Of a DNA stretch of 64,000 bases, positions 5,085-62,415 are shown in pieces. Position 1 is the stretch's first letter, and each line of letters starts with the position of its first letter. The stretch lies in NCBI GenBank assembly GCA_036405415.1, contig DASWXP010000002.1:125862-189861 (forward strand), written 5' to 3'. The position numbers and the translations under genes were made by a program. The notes beneath the pieces were generated by a model, which was not told where the DNA came from, did not search any database, and worked only from the letters and a program-made list of their open reading frames with translations. The DNA is from Minisyncoccota bacterium. Lineage in GTDB: Bacteria > Patescibacteriota > Minisyncoccia > Phycocordibacterales > Phycocordibacteraceae.

Positions 5085-6437
5085 TTATGCTTCCGGCTGC
5101 GCTTCGGAGAGGAGAAGGTCGATACGATTCATGTCGCGCGGGAACGTTGAAGCCTCCTTCACGTTCTGAAGCTCGAGCATGCGGCCCGTAAGGCGCTCAA
5201 GTCCCGTCGAACATCCGCCATGTGGCGGGATGCCGTACTTGAAGGCCTGGAGGTAGAAGGAAAACTTCTCCGGGTCCATGCTCTTCGCCTTCATCTTCGC
5301 TACGAGCTCGTCGTAGCTGTGGATTCGCTGCGCGCCGCTGTTGATCTCGAGGCCGCGGAAGAGAAGGTCGAACGAGAGCGAACGCTCTGGATCCTCAGGA
5401 TCCGCCATGGTGTAAAAGGCGCGCTTTGAGGTCGGGAAATGCGTGACAAATACGAAATCTGATCCGAGTTCGCGCTTCGCGTACTCGCAGATCTGGCGCT
5501 CGTGTTCCGGCTCGAGATCCGGCTCTCCTACGCATGTGTTTCCGAACTCGCGCTCGATAATCTCCTGCACTTCGCGAAGGGTGAAGCGCGGGAATTTTCC
5601 TTCTGGAAGCGCTGCCGGCGCGACACCGAACCGACTGAGAACATCGGCATGCTCAGTAGCGACCGCGGTCGAGATATCACGGGCAACACCCTCAAGCACT
5701 TCCATCACGTCCTCGTGGCTCTTTACGAAGCCCATCTCGAACTCGAGCTGTACGAGCTCGGAGAGATGGCGCGTCGTCGCGCTCTTCTCTGCGCGGAAGG
5801 TCTTCGCGATAGTCATGACGCGCTCGAACGGACCCACCATGATCTGCTTGTAGAGCTGGCCCGAGGTAGCTAGGAACGCACGCTTGCCGTAATAGTCGGG
5901 AATCTCGAACACCGCAGCGCCGCCCTCAGCGTCTCCTCCTACGAGTACCGGCGCCTGGAACTCGGTGAAGTCACGGGAGCGCAACGAGTTGCGGAACGCG
6001 CGGAGGATCGTCGCCTGGACCTTGAAAATGTCGCGATCGCGCTGGCTGCGAAGCGTGAACGGACGGTAATCGAAGCGGGTCTCAATGGTGAGATCATCCG
6101 CATCCTTATCGAATGGAAGTTCTTCGGGCGCGGAGAGTACATCGATTCTCTTTACTTCGAGCTCGATGTCGCCGTTTAGCTTATCCGCCTGCACATTCTT
6201 CTCTGGGCGCTTGTTCACGACGCCTTCGACCGATACTACGAAGTCGTTGCGTACGTCCTTAGCGGCTGCCATGAGCGCCTCGTCTCCCGGAAGCACTACG
6301 CCTTGTACGCTTCCGGTGCGGTCCCGGAAATCGAAGAAGACGAGCTTGCCCTGGTCGCGGCGCACATCCACAAAGCCCTTGATAACGACCTGTTCTCCGG
6401 CCTTGCCGGAAAGGTCCTTGATAAGCGTTCGTTCCAT
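5085..6437 (-). CDS. aspS: Aspartate--tRNA ligase, type 2 (archaeal-like, possibly non-discriminating); AsnRS not excluded
   Basis: 450 aa class IIb synthetase with an N-terminal OB fold. Motif 2 is FRAEKSATTRHLSE, motif 3 is GGCSTGLERL, and SGQLYKQ is present. The length fits a type-2 AspRS or an AsnRS. Confidence 0.7.
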   Translation of the reverse strand: MERTLIKDLSGKAGEQVVIKGFVDVRRDQGKLVFFDFRDRTGSVQGVVLPGDEALMAAAKDVRNDFVVSVEGVVNKRPEKNVQADKLNGDIELEVKRIDVLSAPEELPFDKDADDLTIETRFDYRPFTLRSQRDRDIFKVQATILRAFRNSLRSRDFTEFQAPVLVGGDAEGGAAVFEIPDYYGKRAFLATSGQLYKQIMVGPFERVMTIAKTFRAEKSATTRHLSELVQLEFEMGFVKSHEDVMEVLEGVARDISTAVATEHADVLSRFGVAPAALPEGKFPRFTLREVQEIIEREFGNTCVGEPDLEPEHERQICEYAKRELGSDFVFVTHFPTSKRAFYTMADPEDPERSLSFDLLFRGLEINSGAQRIHSYDELVAKMKAKSMDPEKFSFYLQAFKYGIPPHGGCSTGLERLTGRMLELQNVKEASTFPRDMNRIDLLLSEAQPEA

Positions 6438-7429: not shown

Positions 7430-7465
7430 GGACAAACGATACCACGCTTAGAATGGCTAATGAAC

Positions 7466-7498
7466 AAGCGCCCTTAACACGAAGTATTAAGGGCGCTT
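7466..7498. terminator. Perfect 12-bp stem hairpin (AAGCGCCCTTAA / TTAAGGGCGCTT) downstream of minus ORF 7523..7897
   Basis: Inverted repeat read directly from the sequence; loop is cacgaagta. Confidence 0.4.
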
Positions 7499-7522
7499 AG
7501 TAGTGCTGCGGGCACGGCACGG

Positions 7523-7897
7523 TCAGAAACTGTAACCCAGAAGCGTTTTCCGGATTCCTTCTGGAAGCCGCCAGCTTGATCCGGGCACCTTCCCGACAGG
7601 CCCGTCCGTCCCGATGTGGGACGTGTTCAGGGTAAGGCGCTCCAGGCTCGCAAAGCCATGACCTTCAACCAGAAGGATGGCTTGGTGGCCGGGTTGTGGT
7701 CCCTTGCACTGGGTCCTGACGGATAGTTCGTCAGCGAAGAACGCGGTCAGCGCGCTCCGCAGTCCCACGGCTTGGACGTACAGCGACGTGATGCCGGGCG
7801 ACTTCGGCAGAAGCGACAGGACCGAGGCTCCAAAAGAAGCCAGGGAATGCCTTCCTGCCATATCCTGCAGGACGCTAGAGGTAGTGATTGTGGTCAT
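7523..7897 (-). CDS. Hypothetical protein (124 aa)
   Basis: ATG at 7897 preceded by a strong SD (GGGAGGG, 4 nt spacer). Followed by the hairpin at 7466-7498. No recognisable domain. Confidence 0.45.
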   Translation of the reverse strand: MTTITTSSVLQDMAGRHSLASFGASVLSLLPKSPGITSLYVQAVGLRSALTAFFADELSVRTQCKGPQPGHQAILLVEGHGFASLERLTLNTSHIGTDGPVGKVPGSSWRLPEGIRKTLLGYSF

Positions 7898-8010
7898 TAG
7901 ACCCTCCCAAGGATCATGCCGAAATCGGCTTTGGTCTGCATGCTACAACTTCTCTTCTGGCACGCAAGTTTCCTTTATATTTTCTCGAGATTTCTCCTAT
8001 CTCTGCTTTC

Positions 8011-8016
8011 TATACT
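8011..8016 (+). promoter_or_regulatory. Putative -10 TATACT 7 nt upstream of ATG 8024 (leaderless-type)
   Basis: TATACT-tcacgcc-ATG within an AT-rich stretch. Confidence 0.35.
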
Positions 8017-8023
8017 TCACGCC

Positions 8024-8500
8024 ATGAGTACAGAGCAAGCAAACAGCCAGGATCTGGCAGTAAAGGTTACGGAAATCAAGGAAAGCGCCCGGAGAATGCC
8101 CAATCCGGACGGACCGGACCCGGTTATCGGGAAATTCTGGTTCACTCTGGACGTTACTGCTCTCACGAGAGACCTGTATGTCCCGGTCTCGATCTCCTCG
8201 GGTAAGAAGCCCACAGGATTCTCGTATCTCATCGAAGGCACCGTCCCGGGATCCATAAAGACAACGGATATATCCTGCAAAGGAGAAGGCGTGACGCAGA
8301 TCACGCATGGCACCATTATCTACGCGAAGATACCTAAGGGATTCAGGGCTACGTTCTCTATCCGCATCGAGATGCGCGGTACGCTCGGAAAATCGTACCG
8401 AACGGTCCTGTACCAGATGCAGTACAAGTTGAGTCCTACGGATACCCGCTATCAGAAACTGCCGCTCGACATAAAAGGCAAGATGGAAAAGTTCAGATAG
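8024..8500 (+). CDS. Hypothetical protein (158 aa), compositionally atypical (GC visibly lower than surroundings)
   Basis: ORF in the 7916..8500 frame. ATG 8024 is preferred (TATACT -10 7 nt upstream; the alternative at 7916 has a poor SD). No signal peptide, beta-rich, no recognised motif. Divergent from ORF 7523..7897 and ends at a terminator next to tRNA-Tyr. Confidence 0.5.
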   Translation: MSTEQANSQDLAVKVTEIKESARRMPNPDGPDPVIGKFWFTLDVTALTRDLYVPVSISSGKKPTGFSYLIEGTVPGSIKTTDISCKGEGVTQITHGTIIYAKIPKGFRATFSIRIEMRGTLGKSYRTVLYQMQYKLSPTDTRYQKLPLDIKGKMEKFR

Positions 8501-8530
8501 CAAGAAGCCGCTCGAGTGAGCGGCTTCTTG
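8501..8530. terminator. Hairpin caagaagccgctc-gagt-gagcggcttcttg between ORF 8024..8500 and tRNA-Tyr (bidirectional)
   Basis: 13-bp perfect inverted repeat immediately after the TAG stop at 8498-8500. Confidence 0.5.
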
Positions 8531-8532
8531 CT

Positions 8533-8617
8533 TGGTGCGCCGGGAGGGATTCGAACCCCCGTAGGCAGTGCCAGCACGTTTACAGCGTGCCCTCGTTGAC
8601 CACTTGAGTACCGACGC
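8533..8617 (-). tRNA. tRNA-Tyr (anticodon GTA), long variable arm, CCA encoded
   Basis: Manually folded. Acceptor GCGTCGG/CCGGCGC, anticodon stem GCACG/CGTGC, loop CTGTAAA (GTA), 12-nt variable arm, T-arm GGGGG-TTCGAAT-CCCTC. 85 nt. Confidence 0.9.
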
Positions 8618-8647: not shown

Positions 8648-9898
8648 CTATTTCAAAGCCAGGATAACAGCATCCCGCTTCCCTTTCTTAAGCAGGGCAA
8701 GGCCTCCTAAGAAGTCGCTCTCAGCAAGCTTCTGGTCTACCGAATCAACCGTCTGGCCGTTCAGGCTCACGCCCTTGCCTTCAAGCAGACGTCTCGCGTC
8801 TCCCTTCGAGCTTGCGAGCGAAGAGGTGGCAAGCACATCGAGCACCGAGAGTCCTCCGGCAATATCCTTGCGCAAAACCGGAAGGGACGGCGCCTCCTTG
8901 AGGAGCGTTGCCCGCGCTCCCGCAGAGAGATTTCCGAGCGGCTCCTTTCCAAAGAGGGCTTCCGAGGCCGCTTCGGCATTCTTTGCGCTGTCTGCGCCGT
9001 GCACGATGCCGGTAACCTCGCAGGCGAGCGTCTGCTGCGCCCTACGCGCACCAGGATTCTTTCCGTGCTCCTCCATGAGCGTATCGATCGCAGAGACCTC
9101 GAGGAAGGTGAACATCTTGAGGTACTTCCCGACCATCTCGTCCGGCTGGTTGAGCCAGAACTGGTAGAAGGCGAACGGCGAGGTCTTCTGAGCGTCGAGC
9201 CAAACCGCGTTTCCTTCTGACTTCCCGAACTTCTTGCCGGTTGCGTCCGTTACAAGCGGGGTCGTAAGAGCGAACGCTTCCTTCCCTTCCTTGCGACGGA
9301 TGAGCTCCACGCCGGAGAGAATGTTCGTCCACTGGTCGCTTGCGCCGATCTGAAGGTCGACGCCCTTTTCCCGGTTGAGCACGAGGAAGTCGTATCCCTG
9401 AAGTAAAGAGTATGCGAACTCGGTGTACGAGATCGACTCGTCCGGAGTCTCGAGCCTCCTCTTGATGATGTCGCGCTTCACGAGCTCGTTCACCGTAAAG
9501 TGCTTCCCGATATCCCGGAGGAAGTCCACGAGCTTCACTTTGAGGAGCCAGTCCGCGTTATCGACGACGGTTACCCTCGCCCCCACGATGCGCTGCATCT
9601 GTGCCTTGAGCGCTCTCTTGTTACGCTCTACGATCTTTGTATCTGCCAATACGCGCTCGCCGCTTTCGCGTGGGTCGCCGATCATGCCGGTACCGCCGCC
9701 GACGAGAAGCACGATCTTGTGTCCTGCATCAGCAAGGCGCTTCATGGTGAGGACTACGAGCAGGTTCCCGGCGTGCATGGAGTCTGCGGACGGATCCACG
9801 CCGAGATACACAGTGCGCTTCTTTGAGAGCACCTCATCAATAGGAGCAGATACGTGCTCCACGAGGCCGCGGGCCTTCAGTTCTTCAGCCAGATTCAT
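8648..9898 (-). CDS. tyrS: Tyrosine--tRNA ligase
   Basis: 416 aa. N-terminus has GVDPSADSMHAGNLLVVL (HIGH-type), KFGKSEGN (KMSKS-type) and a C-terminal S4-like domain. TATACT lies 6 nt upstream of the ATG. Confidence 0.9.
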   Translation of the reverse strand: MNLAEELKARGLVEHVSAPIDEVLSKKRTVYLGVDPSADSMHAGNLLVVLTMKRLADAGHKIVLLVGGGTGMIGDPRESGERVLADTKIVERNKRALKAQMQRIVGARVTVVDNADWLLKVKLVDFLRDIGKHFTVNELVKRDIIKRRLETPDESISYTEFAYSLLQGYDFLVLNREKGVDLQIGASDQWTNILSGVELIRRKEGKEAFALTTPLVTDATGKKFGKSEGNAVWLDAQKTSPFAFYQFWLNQPDEMVGKYLKMFTFLEVSAIDTLMEEHGKNPGARRAQQTLACEVTGIVHGADSAKNAEAASEALFGKEPLGNLSAGARATLLKEAPSLPVLRKDIAGGLSVLDVLATSSLASSKGDARRLLEGKGVSLNGQTVDSVDQKLAESDFLGGLALLKKGKRDAVILALK

Positions 9899-9916: not shown

Positions 9917-11560
9917 CTATGCCGGCAACTCGACCACGAACCGCGAACCCTTCCCTTCGCCCTCAGACTCTGCCCATACCTTGCCGCCGTGCGCCTCGAT
10001 TATGTTCTTCACGATATAGAGGCCGAATCCGGTCGATTCGACGTTCACCTTAGCTGAGTTCGCGCCATGACCTCCTTCAGTAAAGAGACGTGCCATGTCT
10101 TCCTTCGTGATACCTACGCCCGTGTCCTCAACCGTGAATCGGACCATCTTTCCTTCCTGTCTGAGCTTTACGCGGACTTCTCCGTTAGGCGTGTACTTGA
10201 TCGAGTTGTCAATAAGGTTCTTGAACGCGTTCACGAGCTGTGCGCGGTCGCCTGGGTACATGAGCGGCTCGGTACCCGTATCAACTGCAAGCGCAAGCTT
10301 CTTTGATTCTGCATTACCCTTCAGGTCACGTGCTATCTCGTCGATAAGTGCCTTGAGATCAAACGGCTCCTTCTTGTATTCCACCTTGCCGCTCTTGATG
10401 TTCGCCGCATTAAGGATTTCCTGAATCGTATTCACGCCCTTGGTGTCTGACCTAAAACCTTCCTCAATCATGGGTCGCATGGTGTCCGGAACGGGACCAA
10501 AGTCGCCATCAAGCACCATGGAAAAAATGTTCCTCGACTTGGTAACGAAGCCCTTGATTTGGTGGGTTATGAAATGGATAAGAGTCACCTGCTGACGATT
10601 TGACACCTGCAACTCCCTAGCAAGCTGCTCGATCTCCTTACGCTGCTGGATTTCGTGCTTAAAACTCTGAAGCAATATGTATCCGAGAATTGCGAGGAAG
10701 ACGAGGGTTGCTGCAACAATCCAGCGAACGACAGAGATGTTTTGAATGAAAAGAATGCTAAAGACTGCAAGCCACAAGCCAATAACAAGCACCTGAGCAG
10801 CCATTATTTGGCTTTTGCCAAGGAATCTGGCTTGGATAACGAAGTATGAGAGCGCGCCAATAGAAATCGGAATAACAAACAAGCCGTACTGGCCAATAGC
10901 CCAGTCCTCCGAGAAGCTACCGACAATATTGCCTGAAGCAAAGCCAAGGAGCAGCACGAGTGTAGATCCCACTACCAACAAGGACTGTGCGCGTTTTGTC
11001 GCGAGCTGTTTATTAGTCCAAGCCCTGAACCCAATCATCACGATCCAGAACACATACAGGATTTCGATGAGATAGTTGTAGTACGGAAGGGGGCCTTCGA
11101 TAACCTCGCGATCGCAGTTGGTGAGATTGAACCCAAGTATATTCCAGTGCGTGCCTGTAAGGCCAACGGTTGGCAACAGCGGGAGCACGATCAAGAGCTT
11201 CGTGCGCCAATGCACGTCCTTACCACTCACGAAAACCATCGTGAAATAGACGAAACCCGCATACACTATTGGCTCGATCATGTTCACGAGCGACCACGCG
11301 AACACAACCATTCTCCGGCTGTCAGTTGCCCAAAGAACAAGATCGAGCAATAGCCAGGTGCTCAGCACAAGCGCTATGAATAAAAGGATTCGGTTGAGGA
11401 GAGACTTTCGGTTTGAAAAGTAAATATAGAATCCGAGAATGAGCGAAACCAGCACCGGTGTCAGGTGCGAGTAGTAAATAAGAGGAGAGAAAACATTTTC
11501 TGAGAAGAACACGAGCGGGCTTGATCCCCATTCGCACGCCGCGATGAGTTCATCGATCAT
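9917..11560 (-). CDS. Sensor histidine kinase with a polytopic N-terminal membrane domain
   Basis: 547 aa. About 8 TM helices, a coiled-coil linker, an H-box region, then HATPase_c motifs (NLIDNSIKYTP... DTGVGI... GFGLYIV). The ATG overlaps the stop of the upstream 59-aa ORF (ATGA). Confidence 0.8.
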   Translation of the reverse strand: MIDELIAACEWGSSPLVFFSENVFSPLIYYSHLTPVLVSLILGFYIYFSNRKSLLNRILLFIALVLSTWLLLDLVLWATDSRRMVVFAWSLVNMIEPIVYAGFVYFTMVFVSGKDVHWRTKLLIVLPLLPTVGLTGTHWNILGFNLTNCDREVIEGPLPYYNYLIEILYVFWIVMIGFRAWTNKQLATKRAQSLLVVGSTLVLLLGFASGNIVGSFSEDWAIGQYGLFVIPISIGALSYFVIQARFLGKSQIMAAQVLVIGLWLAVFSILFIQNISVVRWIVAATLVFLAILGYILLQSFKHEIQQRKEIEQLARELQVSNRQQVTLIHFITHQIKGFVTKSRNIFSMVLDGDFGPVPDTMRPMIEEGFRSDTKGVNTIQEILNAANIKSGKVEYKKEPFDLKALIDEIARDLKGNAESKKLALAVDTGTEPLMYPGDRAQLVNAFKNLIDNSIKYTPNGEVRVKLRQEGKMVRFTVEDTGVGITKEDMARLFTEGGHGANSAKVNVESTGFGLYIVKNIIEAHGGKVWAESEGEGKGSRFVVELPA

Positions 11561-11736
11561 AGGTACTCTGAGAACATAGGAAACTCGCGTTCAATCGACT
11601 CACCAATCTCTTCCTCGGTCGTGAAGGTGGGAAAATTACGCGACAGGAAAGCATTCCAGTAAGTGTACGCCGTCACAACGAGCACAAGGAGGCACAAAAG
11701 TACGAACGGATCCAGAACTTCCTTAATTCCCTTCAT
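11557..11736 (-). CDS. Small membrane protein (59 aa), hypothetical
   Basis: ATG at 11736 gives MKGIKEVLDPFVLLCLLVLVVTAYTYW... (one TM helix plus an acidic tail). Sits between the SET gene stop (11723) and the HK start (11560) with overlaps at both ends. Confidence 0.4.
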   Translation of the reverse strand: MKGIKEVLDPFVLLCLLVLVVTAYTYWNAFLSRNFPTFTTEEEIGESIEREFPMFSEYL

Positions 11737-12229
11737 GTTTTGATAATACCTCACGCTCGTACACTTTCTGGAAGTACTTCGGGATAAAAGGGAGATACTC
11801 CCGATAGGTCTTTTCAGGAAGCGTTTGGATTGGGCCAATGAACTTGCGGAAAGCTGGCGACTCAGGCTCCTCAGTTTCGAAGCAGTAATCGACATCCTCC
11901 TCTGTGGTTGAATAGTCGATCGTAATCTCCTCCCCGGCCGCAATATCTCTCAAGGCATATAATCTCAACTTTCTCGAACCTTTCAGGCCGGCCGTCGGGG
12001 CGCAGGAGTGGTTAAGGTACTGAAACTCATCGATCGGATCGATCCAAGTATTCTTTCCGATTCCAATCCAATCTCCGTAGCGGTTGCTTTGTCCGTAGAT
12101 GGTCGGTTCGTAATATACCCGGGATCCCCGCAGCTCAGCGATAAACTGGCCACGCTTAAGCGCCTGGCGAGTGAAAACCCCGTAACCGTGTATTGGGCTT
12201 TCTAGTACTGAGAGTAAGGCCTTTTTCAT
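11723..12229 (-). CDS. SET-domain protein (putative protein-lysine methyltransferase)
   Basis: 168 aa with SET signatures GYGVF, YLNHSCAPT (NHSC) and ITIDYS (post-SET Tyr). Confidence 0.75.
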   Translation of the reverse strand: MKKALLSVLESPIHGYGVFTRQALKRGQFIAELRGSRVYYEPTIYGQSNRYGDWIGIGKNTWIDPIDEFQYLNHSCAPTAGLKGSRKLRLYALRDIAAGEEITIDYSTTEEDVDYCFETEEPESPAFRKFIGPIQTLPEKTYREYLPFIPKYFQKVYEREVLSKHEGN

Positions 12230-12319
12230 TACTTCAAACTGTTACTACTGATTCTTGCATCCATGTGTAGGGCTTTGCAACCTTTCGCCGTGTGTACTAA
12301 AGAAAAGCGCCCCCAACCC

Positions 12320-12970
12320 TCATCGGATCAGGGGCGCTGCTGGCAGAAACCAGCGACGCACGGAAATCACTCCGACCAAGCCATGCAGAGCGCTGTTCAA
12401 GACCGGATAGATCATGAATTCGCTCTCCCAGCCCGTCTCTTGCCATGTCACATACGCGAGCGTGGCGTATGCACAGGACCAGATGAGCCACGGCAAGGGG
12501 TGCTCGCATCGAGGATCCTTAATCGCCTCGCGGATGAGCGGGCCGAATGAGACGACCGTGCTGGCGTTCGTAAGCACAAGGAACGCCAGCGCGAAGAGGT
12601 CTTTGTCCTCCTCGGTCAGCACATTCTTCGATGTCAGGACCCAGATTCCGACGTACCCCATAGTAAGCAGGACATCGGTCAGGAACGCGCCGCGATCCAT
12701 CGGATGCTCGGGCCACTTGAGGCTGCCTCGCATCAAGCACTGAACCGCGACGAAGAGGCTGAGTGTCGCGCACGTTACCGGAAGAAGAAGCATCATCCAG
12801 GTCGCGTTCCGGTCCCACTCAAGCACGGTGAGCGTTGCGGTTCCGTATGCGAACATGAACCATGTGGTCGGGTTGGGCTTCAGCTCATGCCGCAGCGATT
12901 TGCGAACATAGACGAAGTACCCCAGGGCCTGCAGGAGGCCCGACGCAATTGCAAGCATCGCAAGCGACAT
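12320..12970 (-). CDS. Hypothetical polytopic membrane protein (216 aa)
   Basis: ATG at 12970 with a canonical SD AGGAGG 6 nt upstream. About 6 hydrophobic helices. No recognised family. Confidence 0.5.
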   Translation of the reverse strand: MSLAMLAIASGLLQALGYFVYVRKSLRHELKPNPTTWFMFAYGTATLTVLEWDRNATWMMLLLPVTCATLSLFVAVQCLMRGSLKWPEHPMDRGAFLTDVLLTMGYVGIWVLTSKNVLTEEDKDLFALAFLVLTNASTVVSFGPLIREAIKDPRCEHPLPWLIWSCAYATLAYVTWQETGWESEFMIYPVLNSALHGLVGVISVRRWFLPAAPLIR

Positions 12971-13006
12971 TGCTGACCTCCTAGGTCTAAGTGATGTGAA
13001 GAACAA

Positions 13007-13072: not shown

Positions 13073-14536
13073 CTAATCCCTAGGCCGCATTAGCGGGAAC
13101 AGCTGCGCCTCGCGCACGTCCATATTCTGAAGGAAACTGAAAAGTCGCTCTGAACAGCCAAATCCAAACGCAGGCGGCATGCCGTACTCAAGCGCTTCGA
13201 CGAACTCCATGTCTGCCATCTGCGCCTCATCGTCCCCGGCATCACGCAGCGCCTGCTGTTTCTCGAAGCGCTCGCGCTGGTCGGTAGGGTTATTGAGCTC
13301 TGAGAAGCCCTTGCCCATTTCGCTGCCGGCGAGGATAACCTGCATGCGCTCCACGACCCTGTCGTCCTTCTCGCTCCTTTTGGCGAGTGGCTCGAGGTAT
13401 ACTGGCACCCCGATAAGGAACCCCGGACCGGACACGCCCTTGCGTACCCTCTTCCAGAGAAGGTCCACGCCGCGCTCTATGTTCATGGTATCCATGTCCT
13501 TCTCGATACCTGCGTTCTTGAGCGCCGCCTTCACCTCGTCGAGTGTCGCGGTAAGCGGGTCGAGATTGTACTCCTTGCGGATGATCTCGCAGAAATCATA
13601 GATCTCCCATTCCTTCGCCAGGTCAACCTCGTGCTCGCCGATGGTGAATTTGAGCGTTCCGAAGGTCTCCTGCGCAACGTATCGATACAGATCCTGCACC
13701 ATGCGCATGCCCTCTTCATAATCGGAATATGCCTGATAGAACTCGAGCTGTGTATAGTCCTGGAGATGCTCGCGGCTCATGCCCTCATTCCTGAAAATAC
13801 GGCCTATCTCAAAGGTCTTCGGGAGACCACCCACGAGAAGTTTCTTCTGCCACAGCTCGCCTGCCGAGATGCGGAGGTACACGTCGATATCGAGCGCGTT
13901 ATGGTGCGTCACGAACGGACGCGCTTCTGCGCCTCCTGTAGTGTTCTCGAGCACCGGGGTCTCCACCTCTACGAATCCGCGCTCAAGGAAGTATGAGCGG
14001 AACGCGTTCCAGAACACGGAGCGCCTGCGCGCGGTAGCAGTGGTCTGCTCGTTGAGGAGCATGTCGAGATAGCGCTTACGGAAGCGCTCGTCCTCGTCTG
14101 AAAGCCCGTACCACTGATCCGGAACCGGAAGCAGGGTCTTTGCGAGCATCCGCCACTCGGATACCTGGATGCTTTCCTGGCCGCTCTTGGTGCGTACGAG
14201 CGACCCTGCTGCTTCGACGAAGTCTCCGTTATCAACGGCGCTCTGGAAGAGGTCGAATGCCTCTTCCCCGATCTCGTCCTTCTTAAGAAAGAGCTGAATC
14301 TTTCCGGTGCCGTCCTCGATATCGACGAACGAAGAGCCGCCATGTGTGCGGATAGCACGGATGCGCCCGTCTGCGACTATGTGCGCACCGTTCGATTCGA
14401 ACGATTCGAAATCCGCGAGTATCTGCGCTATCTCATGCGTCCGTCGCGCGCGGTTCGGATACGGATTCATGCCCCTCTCCTCGAGGAGCCTGAGCTTTCG
14501 CATGCGTTCCGCACGTATCTCATCAAGCGCTGACAT
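13073..14536 (-). CDS. lysS: Lysine--tRNA ligase (class II)
   Basis: 487 aa. N-terminal OB fold, motif 2 FEIGRIFRNEGMSREHLQDYTQLEFY, motif 3 GFGCSERL. Confidence 0.9.
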   Translation of the reverse strand: MSALDEIRAERMRKLRLLEERGMNPYPNRARRTHEIAQILADFESFESNGAHIVADGRIRAIRTHGGSSFVDIEDGTGKIQLFLKKDEIGEEAFDLFQSAVDNGDFVEAAGSLVRTKSGQESIQVSEWRMLAKTLLPVPDQWYGLSDEDERFRKRYLDMLLNEQTTATARRRSVFWNAFRSYFLERGFVEVETPVLENTTGGAEARPFVTHHNALDIDVYLRISAGELWQKKLLVGGLPKTFEIGRIFRNEGMSREHLQDYTQLEFYQAYSDYEEGMRMVQDLYRYVAQETFGTLKFTIGEHEVDLAKEWEIYDFCEIIRKEYNLDPLTATLDEVKAALKNAGIEKDMDTMNIERGVDLLWKRVRKGVSGPGFLIGVPVYLEPLAKRSEKDDRVVERMQVILAGSEMGKGFSELNNPTDQRERFEKQQALRDAGDDEAQMADMEFVEALEYGMPPAFGFGCSERLFSFLQNMDVREAQLFPLMRPRD

Positions 14537-14557: not shown

Positions 14558-16342
14558 CTACTCCTTGATAAAGCCGCCCGCCTGGATGCTCCAGAGCTTC
14601 TGATAGAGGCCGCCTTGCTCTAGGACGAGCTCGTCATGAGTGCCGTCTGCGACCACCTTGCCCGCCTCGATAACCACGATGCGATCCATGGTCATGATCG
14701 TGGAGAGTCGGTGCGCGATCACGATAACCGTCTTCCCTTCCATGAGCACCTTGAGCGCGTCCTGGATTAGTGCTTCGCTCTCAGAATCGAGCGCAGACGT
14801 CGCCTCGTCGAGGATGAGGATCGGTGCATTCTTAAGTATGGCGCGGGCAATCGCGACGCGCTGGCGCTCGCCTCCTGAAAGCTTCACGCCGCGTTCGCCC
14901 ACATGCGTCTCGTACTTCTCCGGAAGGCTGTCGATGAACTCGTGGCAGTGCGCTTTCTTGGCAGCCTCGATAACCTCCTCGTCGGTCGCGTCCGGCTTGC
15001 CATACCTTATGTTGTCGGCGAGCGAGCGGTGGAAGAGAATCGGCTCCTGGGGAACGAACGAGATGTTATCCCTGAGCGAATCCTGCGTAACGTCACGTAC
15101 GTCCTGGCCATCGATGCGGACGCTCCCTTCCGTGACGTCGTACATCCTGAGGAGAAGTTTTGTGACGGTTGATTTGCCGGCGCCTGACGGCCCCACGAGC
15201 GCAGTCTTCTGTCCTGCGGGTATTGAAAGGTCAAAAGCCTTGAGGACCGCACGTTCACCGGTGAACGCGAAACCAACTTTCTCCATAGTGATCTCTCCGG
15301 CGGTCACGGTAAGCGCACGGGCGTTAGGCGCATCCATAACCGAGTGCGGAGTCTCGAAGATCTCGATCATCTCATGTGCATCGGCGAACGAGCTGAACAA
15401 GCGCCGCATGGAGCTTCCGATGCCCCAGATGCGGTTCACGAGGCCTATGATGTACACCTGAATGAGCACGAAGTCTCCTACGGAAATAAGGCCGCGCTGC
15501 CACAGGAACACCGCGCCAGCCAGAAGCGCCACTTCAATGACAATCGCCATGATGCCTTGCACCGCAAGGAGCCAGGTATCAGCGTTCCAGGAGCGGATCG
15601 TCGCGTCGTACCATTTCTGAAGCGCACTTCTGAGGATGCCACGCTCGTGCGTGCTCGCCGCGAACAGGCTCACGGTCGATTGGTTGCTGATCGAATCGGA
15701 AAGCACGCCGGTCACGTTGCTCTCTTCTTTCGATCGAGCGACACGCAACGGCTGACGCCATCGTGTCATTACTATCTGGATCCATATGAAGAAAAGGGTC
15801 CACGCGAGCACTCCTACACCGAGAAGGAGGTTCCGTTGGGAGAGCACGATGACGACGCCGATGCTGAAGACGGCGGTCGAGAAGAAGCCGAATGTAAAGA
15901 TGTCGATGACCGACTCGAAAGACTGGGCGTAGCGGCTTACGCGCCTCTGCAGGGAACCCGCGAAGTTCTTCGTAAAGAAGTCGTGTGAATGACGGATCAG
16001 ATGCGCGAACGCGCGGTTATAGAGATCTACCATCACCCTCGCTTCGAAATACTGGAGCGAGATCATCTGGACCCTCCTGCCTACCCAGCCCACCAATGCC
16101 ATGCCTGCATAGAGAATGAGGATCAGGAGAAGCGCTCGTACCGCTGCATCCGAAGCATCTCCCGAAGCGATACCGTCGATGAACTGCTTGATGTAAAGCG
16201 GCGAAGCGAGCGCTGCAAGCTCGATGAGAAGGCTTCCGGCAATGATCAGCACGAAAAGCCAAGGATACTTTCTCCCTGCCTTAGCGTAATCACGCACGAC
16301 CGGCCATGCACGGCCGGACTTCTTTTCATCGTCTGCCTTCAT
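14558..16342 (-). CDS. ABC transporter, fused permease/ATP-binding exporter (MsbA-like)
   Basis: 594 aa. Six-TM N-terminal domain, Walker A GPSGAGKST, signature LSGGERQRVAIARA, Walker B ILILDEATSALD. Confidence 0.85.
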   Translation of the reverse strand: MKADDEKKSGRAWPVVRDYAKAGRKYPWLFVLIIAGSLLIELAALASPLYIKQFIDGIASGDASDAAVRALLLILILYAGMALVGWVGRRVQMISLQYFEARVMVDLYNRAFAHLIRHSHDFFTKNFAGSLQRRVSRYAQSFESVIDIFTFGFFSTAVFSIGVVIVLSQRNLLLGVGVLAWTLFFIWIQIVMTRWRQPLRVARSKEESNVTGVLSDSISNQSTVSLFAASTHERGILRSALQKWYDATIRSWNADTWLLAVQGIMAIVIEVALLAGAVFLWQRGLISVGDFVLIQVYIIGLVNRIWGIGSSMRRLFSSFADAHEMIEIFETPHSVMDAPNARALTVTAGEITMEKVGFAFTGERAVLKAFDLSIPAGQKTALVGPSGAGKSTVTKLLLRMYDVTEGSVRIDGQDVRDVTQDSLRDNISFVPQEPILFHRSLADNIRYGKPDATDEEVIEAAKKAHCHEFIDSLPEKYETHVGERGVKLSGGERQRVAIARAILKNAPILILDEATSALDSESEALIQDALKVLMEGKTVIVIAHRLSTIMTMDRIVVIEAGKVVADGTHDELVLEQGGLYQKLWSIQAGGFIKE

Positions 16343-16378: not shown

Positions 16379-16885
16379 TTATCGTGCCGCCACGAACACT
16401 CCGATCAAAGGCGCCACGAACCACCAGAAGAAGAACCGGTCCGGTGCGAACAGCGCGTCCAGGGACGGCGTAAGCGGGATAACGGCCGCGATATTAAGCA
16501 CATGATACCCGAGCGCGAGCACGAACCCTCCCGTCACGAGCGCGAGCACGCCGAGCGTAAGCGGATGGATGCGCATCGAGCCTGAGGTCGAGACCCTGCG
16601 CAGAAGTACGTACGGGAAGAAGGTGAACACGCCGAACAATACGATGCCGCAGACCGCGCGCGTAAGCGCAGTATCCCCTACGAGAAACTGTTCCTTGTAC
16701 GGGAATACCGTAAAGAGCGCGAAGCCCACATAGAGCGCAAGGATGATGGAAATCAGCATCGAGCGCCCGGTGCGAAGCGCGAAGAAGAAGAGGATGCCCG
16801 CGATGATGAGGAGTACGAGGAAATTCCCGATAAAGGAAACGATATCAGCGAAGCCTCCGGTTGCGAGCGAATTGAGCGCGTCCAT
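16379..16885 (-). CDS. Small polytopic membrane protein, possibly CvpA family
   Basis: 168 aa with 4-5 TM helices. Loose resemblance to CvpA N-termini; weak call. Confidence 0.35.
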   Translation of the reverse strand: MDALNSLATGGFADIVSFIGNFLVLLIIAGILFFFALRTGRSMLISIILALYVGFALFTVFPYKEQFLVGDTALTRAVCGIVLFGVFTFFPYVLLRRVSTSGSMRIHPLTLGVLALVTGGFVLALGYHVLNIAAVIPLTPSLDALFAPDRFFFWWFVAPLIGVFVAAR

Positions 16886-16933: not shown

Positions 16934-18007
16934 TTAAAGTCCCTCGCCCTGCAGCTCTTCGATCGCTTTCTTCGCTTTACCTGAGAGCTTCTTCGGAAGC
17001 GTCACGGTAAGCCGGATGAGAAGGTCGCCGGACTGGTTATCTACGGTTACGCCCTTGCCCTTCAAGCGCAGCGTCTGCTGCACTTCCTGCATCGCTGGGA
17101 TCTTCACCTCGAGCTTCGTGCCGTCCACGAGCGTCACGGAAGCCGTAGTGCCAAGGAGCGCGTCCGTAAGCTTCACCGGCATCTGCATGGAGAGGTTCAT
17201 GCCTTCCTTGCGGAATACCGGATGCGGCTTCACGTGCACTTTCACATACAGGTCTCCGGCGCTCCCGTTCTTGACCGCCTCGCCCTTCCCCGGCATGCGG
17301 ATCATCTCGCCATCATCCATGCCTGGAGGAATCACGATCGAAAGCTCCTCTTCGCGCCGCAGCACCCCGTGCCCTGCACAGGCAGCACAGCGTTCTTTCG
17401 GCACCTTGCCGGTCGCGTCACAGGCCGAACACGCTCTCGTGCTTGCGATCTGCCCGAACGGCGTATTGCGCGCTTCCCGAAGGTGCCCCTGCCCGTTGCA
17501 CTGTTTGCAGGTCTCCATCTCAGTCCCGGGCTTTGCGCCTGACCCTTCGCAGGTCTCGCAGGAAGAGACCTTCGTTATGAGCACTGAGCGGGTGCCGCCA
17601 AGGATAGACTCCTTGAACGGGACCTCGATATCAATAGAAATGTCGCGACCGCGCTTCGCGCGCGTCCTGTGCGTGCCTCCGAAAATGTCCCCGAAGCCCT
17701 CAAAGAGGTCGTTTAGGTCGAACTCGACGCCTCCTTGGCCGAACCCAGAGAATTGCGACGGGTCGAATCCGCCGAAGCCTCCTGCGCCTGGCCCGCCGCC
17801 AGCGAAGGTCTGACCGTACGAGTCGTACTCGCGGCGCTTCTTGTCGTCCCCAAGGACGCTGTACGCCTCGGTTATCTCCTTGAATTTCGCCTCATCCCCG
17901 CCCTTGTCCGGATGATGCTTCTGCGCGAGCTTGCGGAAGGCCTTCTTTACGTCGTCCTTCGTCGCCTTCTTGTCGACTCCGAGAATGTCGTAATAGTTCT
18001 TCGCCAT
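16934..18007 (-). CDS. dnaJ: Chaperone DnaJ
   Basis: J domain (YYDILGV... HHPDK), G/F-rich region, four CxxCxGxG zinc-finger repeats and a C-terminal domain. 357 aa. Confidence 0.9.
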   Translation of the reverse strand: MAKNYYDILGVDKKATKDDVKKAFRKLAQKHHPDKGGDEAKFKEITEAYSVLGDDKKRREYDSYGQTFAGGGPGAGGFGGFDPSQFSGFGQGGVEFDLNDLFEGFGDIFGGTHRTRAKRGRDISIDIEVPFKESILGGTRSVLITKVSSCETCEGSGAKPGTEMETCKQCNGQGHLREARNTPFGQIASTRACSACDATGKVPKERCAACAGHGVLRREEELSIVIPPGMDDGEMIRMPGKGEAVKNGSAGDLYVKVHVKPHPVFRKEGMNLSMQMPVKLTDALLGTTASVTLVDGTKLEVKIPAMQEVQQTLRLKGKGVTVDNQSGDLLIRLTVTLPKKLSGKAKKAIEELQGEGL

Positions 18008-18015
18008 AGGAGGAC

Positions 18016-18021
18016 ACTATA
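18016..18021 (-). promoter_or_regulatory. Putative -10 TATAGT 8 nt upstream of the dnaJ ATG (leaderless-type); no SD present
   Basis: Minus strand reads TATAGT-gtcctcct-ATG. A terminator-like hairpin (gggcggctctc...gagggccgcc plus TTTT) lies just upstream. Confidence 0.35.
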
Positions 18022-18070
18022 ACAGAAAAGGCGGCCCTCGAAAGAGAGCCGCCCGTTTCGTCGTCTTGCG

Positions 18071-18697
18071 TTACTCTCCCTGGTACAGGAACCGGAAGCC
18101 GCCTTGGCGCCAGCGATCGCAGACTTCCTGGTTCTGCGGCTGGATTCGCCCGTAGCAGTTCTGGTTGAAGAACCTGCGCTGCTCGCGACAGAAGTCGGTG
18201 TTGTAGTGGCCGATGGCGCTGCGGTTGGCGTTGCAGTGGAAGGACTGGCTGCCATAAGGCGGCGGGTATCCTTGCCTCTGGTCGAGCTGCCGTAGCTGCA
18301 TCGCCGTCGAGGCGTTGATGGGCAGGATCTTCTGGAATCTCAGGAGACCCCCGGTCCGGCCCCATTCGAACTTCCCATCCGCGCAGCCCATTACCGGCCT
18401 GCCGAGGAAGTCCTCCCTCCTGCAGGACGCCAGGTTCGCGGTTTCGACCAGGATCTCGACGAGACTGGTGCGAGACGCGATCGTCGACAGCTGGTATAGA
18501 CTGTTGCTGTCCTGGCAGTAGAGTACGCGCTCGCCTAGGATTGTACGATCACGGCCGACGCCCCCGTCCGGACAGACGTTTGAGATGGTCCGGTCAGGGC
18601 TCTGGTCCTGCGCAGTGGCGAGGTTCGGTGCGACCAGCGTGAGCATGGCCGCCACGATCCCAAGCGCCCAAAGGCGCGAAGTAACGATATGCGACAT
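18071..18697 (-). CDS. Secreted cysteine-rich hypothetical protein (208 aa)
   Basis: Signal peptide MSHIVTSRLWALGIVAAMLTLVAPNLATA-QD, then 8 Cys in the mature region. Own promoter (TATAGAAT at 18746-18753, minus strand). Sits between dnaK and dnaJ. Confidence 0.6.
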   Translation of the reverse strand: MSHIVTSRLWALGIVAAMLTLVAPNLATAQDQSPDRTISNVCPDGGVGRDRTILGERVLYCQDSNSLYQLSTIASRTSLVEILVETANLASCRREDFLGRPVMGCADGKFEWGRTGGLLRFQKILPINASTAMQLRQLDQRQGYPPPYGSQSFHCNANRSAIGHYNTDFCREQRRFFNQNCYGRIQPQNQEVCDRWRQGGFRFLYQGE

Positions 18698-18770
18698 AAA
18701 GAGCTCCGTGGCTGCGTCCCCGAAGGGCCAATTGACGTTAGCTAGATTCTATAGCATAACTTGAGAAAGT

Positions 18771-18801
18771 CAAGAGCCGCAGCGTGGTGCTGCGGCTCTT
18801 G
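18771..18801. terminator. Hairpin caagagccgcagc-gtggt-gctgcggctcttg downstream of dnaK
   Basis: 13-bp perfect stem. A T-rich tract follows on the minus strand. Confidence 0.5.
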
Positions 18802-18814
18802 AATCTAAGGATTT

Positions 18815-20701
18815 TTAGTCTTCTTTTGGCTTCTCTTCGGTAAATTCTGCGTCAGTAGCCGCTCCTTCCTCCTTCGGAGCCTCTGCTGCCTGCTGCTCTT
18901 CCTTCATCATGCTCTCGCCAATCTTCGAGAGCGAGGTCGAGAGCTCCTCGGATGCAGTCTTGATCGCATCTACGCTATCGCCGTCGCGCGCGGTGCGGAG
19001 TGCGGCGATCTTCTCGTTCACCTCCTTCACCACGTCCTCCCCTGCCTTCTCGCCATTCTCCTTCACGGCCTTCTCGGCGGTGTAGATCATCTGCTCTGCG
19101 AGGTTCTTGACCTCGACGAGCTCCTTGCGCTTCTCGTCCTCAGCCTTGTTCGCCTCAGCGTCCGCCTTCATCTTCTCGATGTCGGCATCTGAGAGGCCGG
19201 TTGATCCCTCGATGCGGATGGACTGCTCCTTGCCGGTGGTCTTCTCCTTGGCCTTCACGGTTAGGATGCCGTTGCTGTCGACATCAAACGTAACCTCGAC
19301 CTGCGGCATGCCGCGCGGTGCCGGCGGGATGCCGTCGAGCATGAAGCGTCCGAGCGACTTGTTATCGGAAGCCATCGCGCGCTCGCCCTGCGTGACATGG
19401 ATTTCAACGGATGTCTGGTTGTCTGACGCGGTCGAGAACACCTGGGACCGCGAGGTCGGGACCGCGGTATTGCGCTCGATGAGCTTGGTCGCGACGCCGC
19501 CCATGGTCTCGATCGAGAGCGAGAGCGGGATCACGTCGACGAGAAGGATGTCCTTCACGTCGCCCTGCAGGATACCTGCCTGGATCGCCGCGCCGATAGC
19601 CACCACTTCGTCCGGGTTCACGTCACGATGCGGCTTCTTCCCGAAAAGCTTCTCTACCTCTTCCTGGATCTTCGGCATGCGGGTCTGGCCGCCCACGAGG
19701 ATGACCTCCTCGATATCAGCGGCCTTGAAGCCGGACGCTTCGAGCGCGCGCTTCGTGATATCGATGGAGCGCGCGATGTATTCGTCCGCGAGCGACTCCA
19801 AGGTCGCGCGCGAGAGCTTCACGAGAAGGTGCTGCGGTGTGCCATCGGAACCTACGGTCACGAACGGGATGTTCACCTCGGTCTCAGTTGCGGTAGAAAG
19901 CTCGAGCTTCGCCTTCTCAGCCGCTTCATCGAGGCGCTGAAGCGCGAGGGGATCCTTCGTGATGTCGAGCCCCGATTCCTTCTTGAACTCGTCGGCGAGG
20001 TGACGGACGATCTTCTGGTCGATATCGCGGCCGCCCATGTGGCTGTCACCGTCGGTAGCCTTCACCTCGATAACGTCGTCGCCGACCTCGAGCACCGACA
20101 CGTCGAACGTGCCGCCGCCGAAGTCGAACACGACGATCTGCTGGTCCTTCTTCTTGTTGAAACCATACGCGAGCGCTGCCGCAGTCGGCTCGTTGATGAT
20201 GCGCTTTACGTCGAGTCCTGCGACCTGGCCTGCTGCCTTGGTCGCTGCGCGCTGCGCGTCATCGAAGTACGCAGGCACGGTGATAACCGCCTCGGTGATG
20301 GTCTCGCCGAGCTTCTTCTCCGCGTCAGCCTTGAGCTTTGCGAGGATCATCGCGGACACCTCCTCTGGACGGTAATCCTTCTCGCCGAGATGTACCTGCA
20401 CGCCGCCGTCAGGACCTGCCTTGATCTCGTACGGCACGACGTCCTTGTCCTTCGTTACGACATCATCCTCGAAGCGATGGCCCATGAAGCGCTTGATGCC
20501 GTAGATAGTGTTCTTCGGATTCGTGACGGCCTGGCGCTTCGCGAGCGTGCCTACGAGGCGCTCGCCATTTTTTGCGATCGCGACGACCGATGGCGTAGTG
20601 CGCGCGCCTTCAGCGTTCTCAAGCACGCGCGGCTCGCCCCCCTCCATGATGGCCATGGCGGAGTTGGTAGTACCAAGATCGATACCGAGGATCTTTCCCA
20701 T
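18815..20701 (-). CDS. dnaK: Chaperone DnaK (Hsp70)
   Basis: [14 protein letters not shown]..., DLGGGTFD, and full Hsp70 architecture. The track start is TTG; the ATG is at 20701. Confidence 0.95.
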
Positions 20702-20784
20702 AGTCAAAAGAAGTTAGTGTGTAACTCTATATAAACGCCCACTGATTTCCCTATTTTACGCTTCCCGTTTTCAGCCTTCAAGGC

Positions 20785-62031: not shown

Positions 62032-62415
62032 TTACGCCGAAGGCGCGAGCATGCTCTCGATCTTCGCCACGATCTCCTCAACCGCGACCTCCGCCTTGAT
62101 GAGGTAGTCGTTCGCGCCGAGCGACTTCGCCTTCTCGATGTCAGTCTCGGCGCCCAGGTTCGATACCACGACGATAGGCACGTTCTTAAGCTCGTCCGTG
62201 CGAGCCCGGATGCTTTCTAGTACCGCGAACCCGTCCATGGTCGGAAGCATGAGGTCCAGGAGCACCAGCACCGGCTTGTTCGCCTCAAGCAGCGCGATAG
62301 CCTCGTTCCCGTCTGACGCGTACAGCGTCTGGTACTTGCCCGCAAGCGTATGCCCGAGGAGGTTCTTGAGGATCGGATCGTCCTCCACTACGAGAATGAA
62401 TTTGGTGTCTGCCAT
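62032..62415 (-). CDS. Single-domain response regulator (CheY-like receiver)
   Basis: 127 aa receiver. Acidic pocket (VVEDD), phospho-acceptor Asp in LVLLDLMLP, conserved T/K (VVVSNLG...KA). No output domain. Confidence 0.85.
   Translation of the reverse strand: MADTKFILVVEDDPILKNLLGHTLAGKYQTLYASDGNEAIALLEANKPVLVLLDLMLPTMDGFAVLESIRARTDELKNVPIVVVSNLGAETDIEKAKSLGANDYLIKAEVAVEEIVAKIESMLAPSA

Follow-up and report, generated by a model that had tools for sequence, protein, structure and literature searches.

The stretch of DNA analysed here (the window) comprises 64,000 nucleotides (nt) from a Minisyncoccota bacterium, and it contains on its minus strand a cassette of four genes for a SET-domain protein and three membrane proteins. 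In the direction of reading, these genes encode a protein with seven transmembrane (TM) helices, here called the 7-TM protein (12320-12970; 216 amino acids (aa) from the ATG at 12970, with an open reading frame (ORF) that stays open further back, to a TTG at 13006), the SET-domain protein (11723-12229; 168 aa), a single-pass micro-protein (11557-11736, from the ATG at 11736 to the stop codon at 11557; 59 aa) and a sensor histidine kinase (9917-11560; 547 aa). An earlier note on the window had described the last three as a translationally coupled unit. All three genes are real, but the unit is larger than described, as a fourth conserved gene, that for the 7-TM protein, is located directly upstream of the SET gene. 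The overlaps had been read correctly: the SET gene shares 14 nt at its 3' end with the micro-protein gene, and the TGA stop codon of the latter overlaps the start codon of the kinase gene in an ATGA at 11557-11560. Only three of the 18 junctions among the neighbouring genes in 620-21906 overlap, two of them within the triad, and overlaps are therefore not a general property of this genome. A consensus scan of the region for promoters and terminators gave site counts that were not above those of shuffled sequences, and a single signal stands out. This is a terminator-like hairpin on the minus strand (12306-12338; 14 pairs, nine of them G-C, with a T-rich tail) that spans the stop codon of the 7-TM gene, ahead of the 90-nt spacer before the SET gene. 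It may partially uncouple the 7-TM gene from the SET, micro-protein and kinase genes in this genome.

We compared two sets of related loci, one consisting of 80 genome loci that were fetched with the SET protein, and an independent, metagenomic set that was fetched with the 7-TM protein. The conservation of the triad in relatives is very strong. A full-length kinase homologue, including the sensor, is located directly downstream of the SET gene in 69 of the 80 genome loci, which span the Parcubacteria, Paceibacteria, and the Kaiser-, Nomura-, Moranii-, Harrison- and Komeilibacteria, and profile hidden Markov models identified all four genes as complete in 70 of the 95 low-GC loci of at least 7 kb, which represent the Paceibacteria and Parcubacteria. 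A 7-TM protein of the 216-aa type precedes the SET protein in most loci. In the metagenomic set, the SET gene follows the 7-TM gene in 62 of 64 cases, and the corresponding numbers are 50 of 52 for the kinase and 52 of 57 for the micro-protein. Searches from the kinase side yielded three further contexts, again with the SET protein, the 7-TM protein and the peptide, the SET gene being inverted in one locus (L165). The SET gene is still located next to the kinase gene where the 7-TM gene is absent or has moved (L059, L071, L079 and L165).

The most constant partner of the SET protein is the 7-TM protein, which has a PQ-loop-type fold. The two are fused into a single protein in three loci (L051, L015 and L056) and in 12 of 146 newly retrieved representatives of the 7-TM family, which places the SET domain at the cytoplasmic C-terminus of the 7-TM protein. 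Two other apparent fusions (L008 and L019) were discarded, as they resulted from extension of the longest ORF in another frame. In the Alphaproteobacteria, the 7-TM and SET genes form a bicistron without the micro-protein or this kinase, and the same is true of a locus from outside the candidate phyla radiation (CPR), L161. The GC content of the window is 0.584, and the alphaproteobacterial loci were assigned with the help of their neighbouring genes and not by GC content alone. The link of the 7-TM-SET pair to membrane sensors recurs in the Alphaproteobacteria, where the pair is divergent from a gene for a CHASE4 kinase or a CHASE4-GGDEF-EAL protein in five loci (L067, L074, L062, L019 and L008). 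An alphaproteobacterial pair is also found convergent with an OPT transporter gene, and one representative of the 7-TM family (P0205) has its 7-TM domain fused to CHASE4. Taken together, we consider it very likely that the cassette is one functional membrane unit.

The identification of the SET domain in the earlier note is borne out by a profile search, in which the 168-aa protein matched PF00856 with an E-value of 7.1e-14 (52.5 bits, compared with a cut-off of 22.4) over the full length of the model (positions 1-105 of 105). The motifs of the family are located at G15-Y-G17, N73-H74-S75-C76 and D105-Y106, and an alignment of 27 homologues revealed that the GxG motif, which binds S-adenosylmethionine (SAM), the NHS(C) motif and the catalytic tyrosine are invariant or nearly so. 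With both its SAM-binding and catalytic motifs intact, the protein is, as judged from its sequence, a SAM-dependent methyltransferase. It also contains a family-specific extension at its C-terminal end (IGPIQxLPxxxYxxYLPFIPxYFQKxY). The post-SET zinc cluster, CxCx4C, is present in most of the family, with its cysteines kept in the more distant members, and is absent from the clade of the window protein, which reads YCFETEEPESPAFRKF. The best solved relatives of the family profile are the SET and post-SET domains of KMT2A (1.6e-18) and BurB (1.2e-12). The window protein has 100% identity with a protein from a metagenome-assembled genome at NCBI that is assigned to Candidatus Paceibacterota. The SET domain is occasionally duplicated, either as two tandem genes (L002, L006, L015, L025 and L053), as a tandem SET-SET fusion with no kinase nearby (L073, 6001-6963, 320 aa) or as a 7-TM-SET-SET fusion of 530 aa (P0334). 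The earlier remark that bacterial SET proteins are usually effector-like does not fit this family, as the cassette is embedded among housekeeping genes.

The 7-TM protein is predicted to have the fold of the PQ-loop, SWEET and KDEL-receptor proteins, with seven TM helices in a 3+1+3 arrangement, the N-terminus outside and the C-terminus inside. No Pfam or NCBIfam family matched its sequence, including the PQ-loop and MtN3 models. At the repeat-equivalent sites, the family contains an LQ in TM1, where Q14 is nearly invariant, and an FxP in TM5, where P144 is invariant, which is suggestive at most. The family has 727 members, as identified by a profile search of 1.84 billion representative sequences. 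Relatives with the PQ-loop fold transport cystine and cationic amino acids. The cassette protein differs from the PQ-loop, SWEET, cystinosin, PQLC2 and KDEL-receptor proteins in that it has no match to the Pfam PQ-loop and MtN3 models; it is a full-length bacterial form rather than a SemiSWEET with three TM helices, and in some species it is fused to the methyltransferase or to CHASE4.

The gap of 150-200 nt between the SET and kinase genes contains an ORF of 46-65 aa with a constant design, which consists of a basic N-terminus (often MDKKSK), one TM helix, the motifs YYRY and DFxIFT(D/E)EExIP, and an acidic tail. A profile that was derived from 35 copies matched the window and 62 of the 80 loci in the SET-fetched genome set, and in approximately 54 of these 62 loci the match is to the short form located between the SET and kinase genes. 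The earlier proposal that this small ORF is coding is substantiated by its conservation in profile searches and by the substitution pattern among the six closest copies, in which the proportion of nonsynonymous differences (pN, 0.30-0.44) is lower than that of synonymous differences (pS, 0.68-1.0); synonymous sites are saturated, so that the comparison states only that pN is below pS and yields no dN/dS ratio. With a supported SET domain, a coding small ORF and a conserved triad, none of the grounds that the earlier note gave for abandoning its proposal applies. No match to the micro-protein was found in Pfam and NCBIfam. It is predicted to have its N-terminus inside and its C-terminus outside, and the window copy has a short N-terminus, one TM helix and an acidic C-terminal tail with a charge of -5 (TTEEEIGESIEREF...). 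In the 55 copies compared, the segment before the TM helix has a mean charge of +1.4 and that after it one of -4.3; the former is positive in 84% of the copies and the latter negative in 93%.

The micro-protein gene is tightly linked to its neighbours: in 47 of 49 loci its stop codon is located -13 to +12 nt from the start codon of the kinase gene, and in 42 of 48 loci the distance from the SET stop codon to the micro-protein start is -17 to +22 nt. In a single case (L031), it is fused in frame onto the N-terminus of the kinase, which fits the topology, as the C-terminus of the micro-protein and the N-terminus of the kinase are both predicted to be outside. The same locus contains a 108-aa EamA/SMR-like transporter with four TM helices (6009-6335; just below the Pfam thresholds) between the SET gene and the gene for the fusion protein. 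Tandem kinase paralogues can have their own micro-protein (L034), and where the gap is too short to contain the ORF, a longer paralogue is located 1-4 kb upstream in the same locus. Such paralogues (L053, 2697-3272; L071, 1386-1964; L079, 1809-2237; L043, 4049-4876; L015, 4416-4844; L059, 2977-3489) have the same N-terminus and TM helix, but also a Cys-rich, very acidic ectodomain (CDPxxExCFVYxCDPE...), and they belong to no Pfam family. The tight linkage and the fusion in L031 suggest that the micro-protein is a dedicated partner that engages the kinase. By analogy with the KDEL receptor, we also considered that its acidic C-terminus might be a ligand of the 7-TM protein.

The kinase contains a HATPase_c domain (PF02518, 1e-27, residues 437-546), with N, G1 and G2 boxes that are conserved in 66 homologues. 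Its phospho-acceptor in the DHp domain is H333 (nt 10562-10564), which is at least 95% conserved in the alignment of the 66 sequences, and the H-box consensus of the family, SHQLRGPLT, resembles the canonical H-box. The Pfam HisKA model does not match the window kinase, but it matches relatives. The earlier note had described a kinase with eight TM helices; the protein is indeed a polytopic histidine kinase, but the structure model suggests nine helices. The sensor, approximately residues 1-300 (nt 10661-11560), is predicted to form a bundle similar to that of G-protein-coupled receptors (GPCRs), the quality of the model being moderate. Its conserved segments include an N-terminal C9-x-W, FSxNVFxPLIYYSH, NLTNC149DREAIEGPLxYYxY in loop 4-5 and WxIGQYG in loop 6-7, and the external loops contain two invariant cysteines and an acidic D-R-E..E motif. 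The sensor domains of 19 of the 51 aligned relatives match HisKA_7TM (PF16927; best E-value 1.7e-7), while the window protein has no such match at an E-value of 0.01 or below, and precomputed HisKA_7TM annotations exist in homologues of the kinase. HisKA_7TM appears in the literature only as an uncharacterised sensor domain. The kinase family resembles the HisKA_7TM kinases in having a polytopic sensor ahead of the HisKA/HATPase core, but differs from them in its predicted nine helices with a GPCR-like core, and it represents a subfamily that is defined by linkage to SET, the 7-TM protein and the micro-protein.

Consistent with the earlier note, there is no response regulator adjacent to the kinase: a search of the 64-kb window with the receiver-domain profile identified one receiver only, a CheY-like protein of 127 aa (62032-62415, minus strand). 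This gene is located immediately after that for a second, conventional histidine kinase of 360 aa (62421-63503, minus strand). Stand-alone or double receivers follow the cassette kinase in six relatives, being either CheY-like or double-receiver proteins (L031, L050 and L079; L043, L053 and L059), and the kinase therefore probably signals to an unlinked CheY-like receiver. With an identity of 38% to its stand-alone counterpart encoded after the SET-linked kinase in L050, the window receiver could be shared.

Rare rearrangements within the cassette are dominated by polyamine enzymes. In L164, SET is displaced, and the order of genes is 7-TM protein, SAM decarboxylase, micro-protein, a class-I small-molecule N-methyltransferase of the NNMT_PNMT_TEMT family (PF01234, 6e-34) and kinase; the latter is 50% identical to the window kinase and has the same H-box, HFITHQIKGF. 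SET is also absent from L144, where a 477-aa Sacchrp_dh enzyme that resembles homospermidine synthase is located between the 7-TM protein and the micro-protein, followed by the kinase. In other loci SET is retained. L090 contains genes for spermidine synthase (SpeE) and DUF2617 between the 7-TM and SET genes, and in L059 and L071 a Sacchrp_dh-like gene and then a SAM decarboxylase gene directly precede SET. L079 contains a tightly packed, partly overlapping series of genes for SAM decarboxylase, an EamA-like transporter, a deoxyhypusine-synthase-like protein, an arginase-family protein, SET, the kinase and CheY, and L035 has ornithine/arginine decarboxylase, DS-like and agmatinase-family genes directly before the 7-TM-SET pair. 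The non-CPR pair in L161 is located near genes for agmatinase (above the NCBIfam cut-off), a gamma-glutamylputrescine-synthetase-like protein, an amine oxidase and a PotA-like ATPase. Overall, 28 polyamine-type genes were found in 17 of 166 loci, in at least eight arrangements, as a raw count. They represent eight families, namely SAM decarboxylase, spermidine synthase, DUF2617, two saccharopine-dehydrogenase-type families, deoxyhypusine-synthase-like, arginase-family and ornithine/arginine decarboxylase proteins; the NNMT-like methyltransferase comes in addition to these. As a separate observation, a DUF2617 gene is located between or next to the genes for SAM decarboxylase and spermidine synthase in two loci (L104, 3497-4012; L090, 6939-7532), a position that recalls the uncharacterised PA4775 in speD2-speE2-PA4775 and is a likeness of gene arrangement.

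We suggest, with a probability of roughly 45%, that the cassette serves to methylate a small, polyamine-type cationic amine, to move it across the membrane and to sense it. From a position at the cytoplasmic opening of the 7-TM protein, SET would N-methylate the amine, most likely a polyamine or else a related diamine or basic amino acid, and either this substrate or the methylated product would cross the membrane through the 7-TM protein. The acidic external tail of the micro-protein and the external loops of the kinase would together act as a sensor for the amine, or for the surface-charge state that it creates, and the kinase would signal to an unlinked CheY-like single-domain receiver. The overlapping stop and start codons would keep the SET protein, the micro-protein and the kinase co-expressed. 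The gene linkage, the fusions, the folds, the catalytic motifs and the replacement of SET by different enzymes of amine metabolism are what the analysis shows; the substrate class, the direction of transport and the sensing via the acidic tail are the parts of this scheme that we infer. Weighing against it, polyamine genes occur in only about 10% of the loci and none is present in this window, the SET family most resembles protein-lysine methyltransferases, and related loci are not independent observations. We are more doubtful of a more specific version, although it is possible, in which SET on the PQ-loop-type 7-TM transporter makes and exports an N-methylated signal of the polyamine type that is read by the nine-TM kinase via an acidic micro-protein tether.

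The earlier note had proposed that lysine methylation modulates the kinase or is controlled by it. Methylation of the kinase, the micro-protein or the 7-TM protein by SET could tune signalling much as CheR methylation adapts chemoreceptors, and several features speak for it: in alignments the family is most similar to genuine lysine methyltransferases, most of its members retain the post-SET zinc cluster, the codons of SET, micro-protein and kinase overlap, tethering via the 7-TM protein would bring SET beside the kinase, and most micro-proteins have a cytoplasmic N-terminus that is rich in lysine (MDKKSK). However, the 7-TM-SET pair occurs without the kinase or the micro-protein in the Alphaproteobacteria, which makes this kinase an unlikely substrate of SET, and the kinase and the micro-protein are retained in loci in which SET has given way to a small-molecule N-methyltransferase or to a polyamine enzyme. 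Furthermore, the alignments of the 7-TM protein, the micro-protein and the kinase sensor contain no invariant lysine, the window micro-protein lacks the KKSK motif, and the loci examined yielded neither a demethylase nor a reader. We therefore do not favour lysine methylation and regard it as unlikely. Methylation of a lipid amine head group, such as that of phosphatidylethanolamine or a lysyl-lipid, which the 7-TM protein would present or flip while the kinase and the micro-protein sense the change in the membrane, would fit with a SET protein whose partner, sometimes within the same polypeptide, is an integral membrane protein and with a kinase sensor that is predicted to be almost wholly intramembrane; some members of the PQ-loop superfamily have also been linked to lipid-linked substrates. 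The recurring neighbours are, however, soluble enzymes of the polyamine pathway rather than genes for lipid synthesis, and the enzyme that takes the place of SET in L164 comes from a family known for its soluble small-amine substrates, which makes a lipid substrate very unlikely.

It is also quite unlikely that the 7-TM-SET and micro-protein-kinase genes are unlinked pairs that have become adjacent through the co-directional synteny of CPR genomes (S9-GrpE-DnaK-DnaJ-...-TrpRS), even though a long, conserved stretch of housekeeping genes surrounds the cassette, the window has a terminator-like hairpin between the 7-TM and SET genes, and the 7-TM-SET pair is autonomous in other phyla. SET stays beside the kinase in the four loci where the 7-TM gene is absent or has moved (L059, L071, L079 and L165), and the cassette persists where the surroundings are rearranged, as in L162, which has no DnaK or DnaJ genes upstream. 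The alphaproteobacterial pair is again located beside CHASE4 sensors, with one 7-TM-CHASE4 fusion, and the junction between SET and the micro-protein is among the three that overlap out of the 18 considered in the window. Finally, the order of a polytopic protein, a small peptide and a polytopic kinase resembles agrB-D-C, and the acidic tail is predicted to be external, as would be expected if the micro-protein were a precursor that is processed or exported by the 7-TM protein, possibly after modification by SET, and the kinase sensed the released acidic peptide. But the 7-TM fold is that of a transporter or receptor and not of the AgrB peptidase, there is no match to AgrB or AgrD in Pfam, and no LytTR regulator is present in the window or in related loci. 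The strong TM anchor of the micro-protein and its fusion to the kinase in L031 suggest that it is a resident subunit rather than a released signal, and the longer paralogues have a Cys-rich ectodomain. We thus consider this arrangement highly improbable, and the identification of the cassette as an agr quorum-sensing system was rejected on account of the PQ-loop-like fold and the fusion of the micro-protein to the kinase.

Each part of the cassette belongs to a known superfamily or class, namely SET, PQ-loop/SWEET, HisKA_7TM and the small-protein partners of kinases, but we did not find the combination described. A search of the literature gave no description of the cassette, of SET proteins in CPR bacteria or of SET tied to polyamine genes, and the cassette was likewise undescribed in searches for SET with PQ-loop proteins and SET with Hsp70 or DnaJ. 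The cassette represents a two-component sensor with unprecedented accessory proteins. Small membrane proteins reportedly partner sensor kinases in the pairs MgrB-PhoQ, SafA-PhoQ and MzrA-EnvZ, and these are similar in that a short, single-pass protein with the N-terminus inside and the C-terminus outside uses its TM helix and a short external tail to act on a membrane-bound sensor kinase. The cassette micro-protein has no sequence relationship to them, and it differs in the position of its gene, which directly precedes that of the kinase with codons that overlap, in its class-level conservation, in its occasional fusion to the kinase and in its longer Cys-rich paralogues; it is also not known as a feedback target.

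The SET protein shares with the KMT2/Trithorax proteins, its best sequence match (1.6e-18), the GxG, NHSC and DY motifs, but it lacks the post-SET cysteines, has a distinct C-terminal extension and occurs in a membrane-signalling context with no chromatin proteins. A precedent for a SET domain that acts on a free amino acid is BurB, a methionine S-methyltransferase of 172 aa (PDB 9l4t; PMC12542666). Both are small, stand-alone bacterial SET proteins, and BurB methylates a free small molecule and not a protein. However, BurB is a soluble tetramer from a dimethylsulfoniopropionate (DMSP) and secondary-metabolite pathway, while the window protein is closer to the KMT2-type SET and post-SET domains and is probably membrane-associated via its 7-TM partner. 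The operon speD2-speE2-PA4775 of P. aeruginosa, which is located upstream of pmrAB, provides a precedent for polyamine genes beside a cation-sensing two-component system (PMC7179292). As in some of the loci studied here, genes for polyamine enzymes, namely SAM decarboxylase and an aminopropyl-transferase, are linked to a two-component sensor, which in P. aeruginosa is cation-responsive, and the polyamine product in P. aeruginosa acts at the cell surface (PMC7179292). That system is without a SET enzyme, a PQ-loop protein and a micro-protein, and the sensor domain of PmrB is periplasmic and not a nine-TM bundle, with its response regulator encoded adjacently.

Directly upstream of the cassette, most CPR loci, among them L163, L165 and L166, contain the gene for ribosomal protein S9 followed by grpE-dnaK-dnaJ, and in the window DnaJ (16934-18007) and DnaK (18815-20707) are encoded in a minus-strand block at 16934-20707. 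DnaK and DnaJ were considered as partners of SET but were judged to represent lineage synteny, as they are missing around the pair in L162, L161 and the alphaproteobacterial loci. A membrane protein of 168 aa (16379-16885, minus strand) may be a fifth component of the cassette. In most related loci, the gene for its orthologue of approximately 162 aa immediately precedes the 7-TM gene, and the family was identified as a cluster in 57 loci and by tblastn in 46 loci, with no match in Pfam and NCBIfam. In the window, genes for an ATP-binding cassette (ABC) exporter (14558-16342) and lysyl-tRNA synthetase (LysRS; 13073-14536) are inserted between the gene for the 168-aa protein and the 7-TM gene. 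The LysRS gene adjoins the 7-TM gene in the window and in two other loci (L001 and L022), a recurring lysine-related neighbourhood, and a gene that resembles LL-diaminopimelate aminotransferase is located upstream of the 7-TM gene in five loci (L103, 4623-5804, where it is adjacent; L105, L137, L016 and L133). On the other side of the cassette, a gene for tRNA-Tyr(GTA) (8533-8617, minus strand) is located 30 nt downstream of the tyrosyl-tRNA synthetase gene (8648-9898, minus strand). The stretch of 1.2 kb between the tryptophanyl-tRNA synthetase (TrpRS) gene and tRNA-Tyr (7440-8530) has no minus-strand gene, and contains a plus-strand ORF of 194 aa (7916-8500) that belongs to no Pfam family.

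The cassette provides bacterial SET proteins with a conserved, non-effector context that has testable partners, it predicts polyamine-type amines as a new class of SET substrate, and it reveals a full-length PQ-loop protein in bacteria that acts together with an enzyme. The pair of micro-protein and kinase, with its natural fusion, offers a model for the gating of polytopic GPCR-like sensor kinases. These predictions are testable with recombinant proteins, so that cultivation is unnecessary. The CPR, or Patescibacteria, represent a large share of bacterial diversity and have tiny genomes with very few signalling systems. As the cassette has been kept in nearly all Paceibacteria examined, it is likely to be central to how these bacteria perceive their surroundings or hosts. 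If an N-methylated polyamine-type signal is indeed made, exported and read by the cassette, this would be the first polyamine N-methyltransferase of the SET family, and an unrecognised circuit of autocrine or host-directed chemical signalling that is nearly universal in the Paceibacteria, which are episymbiotic members of the CPR.

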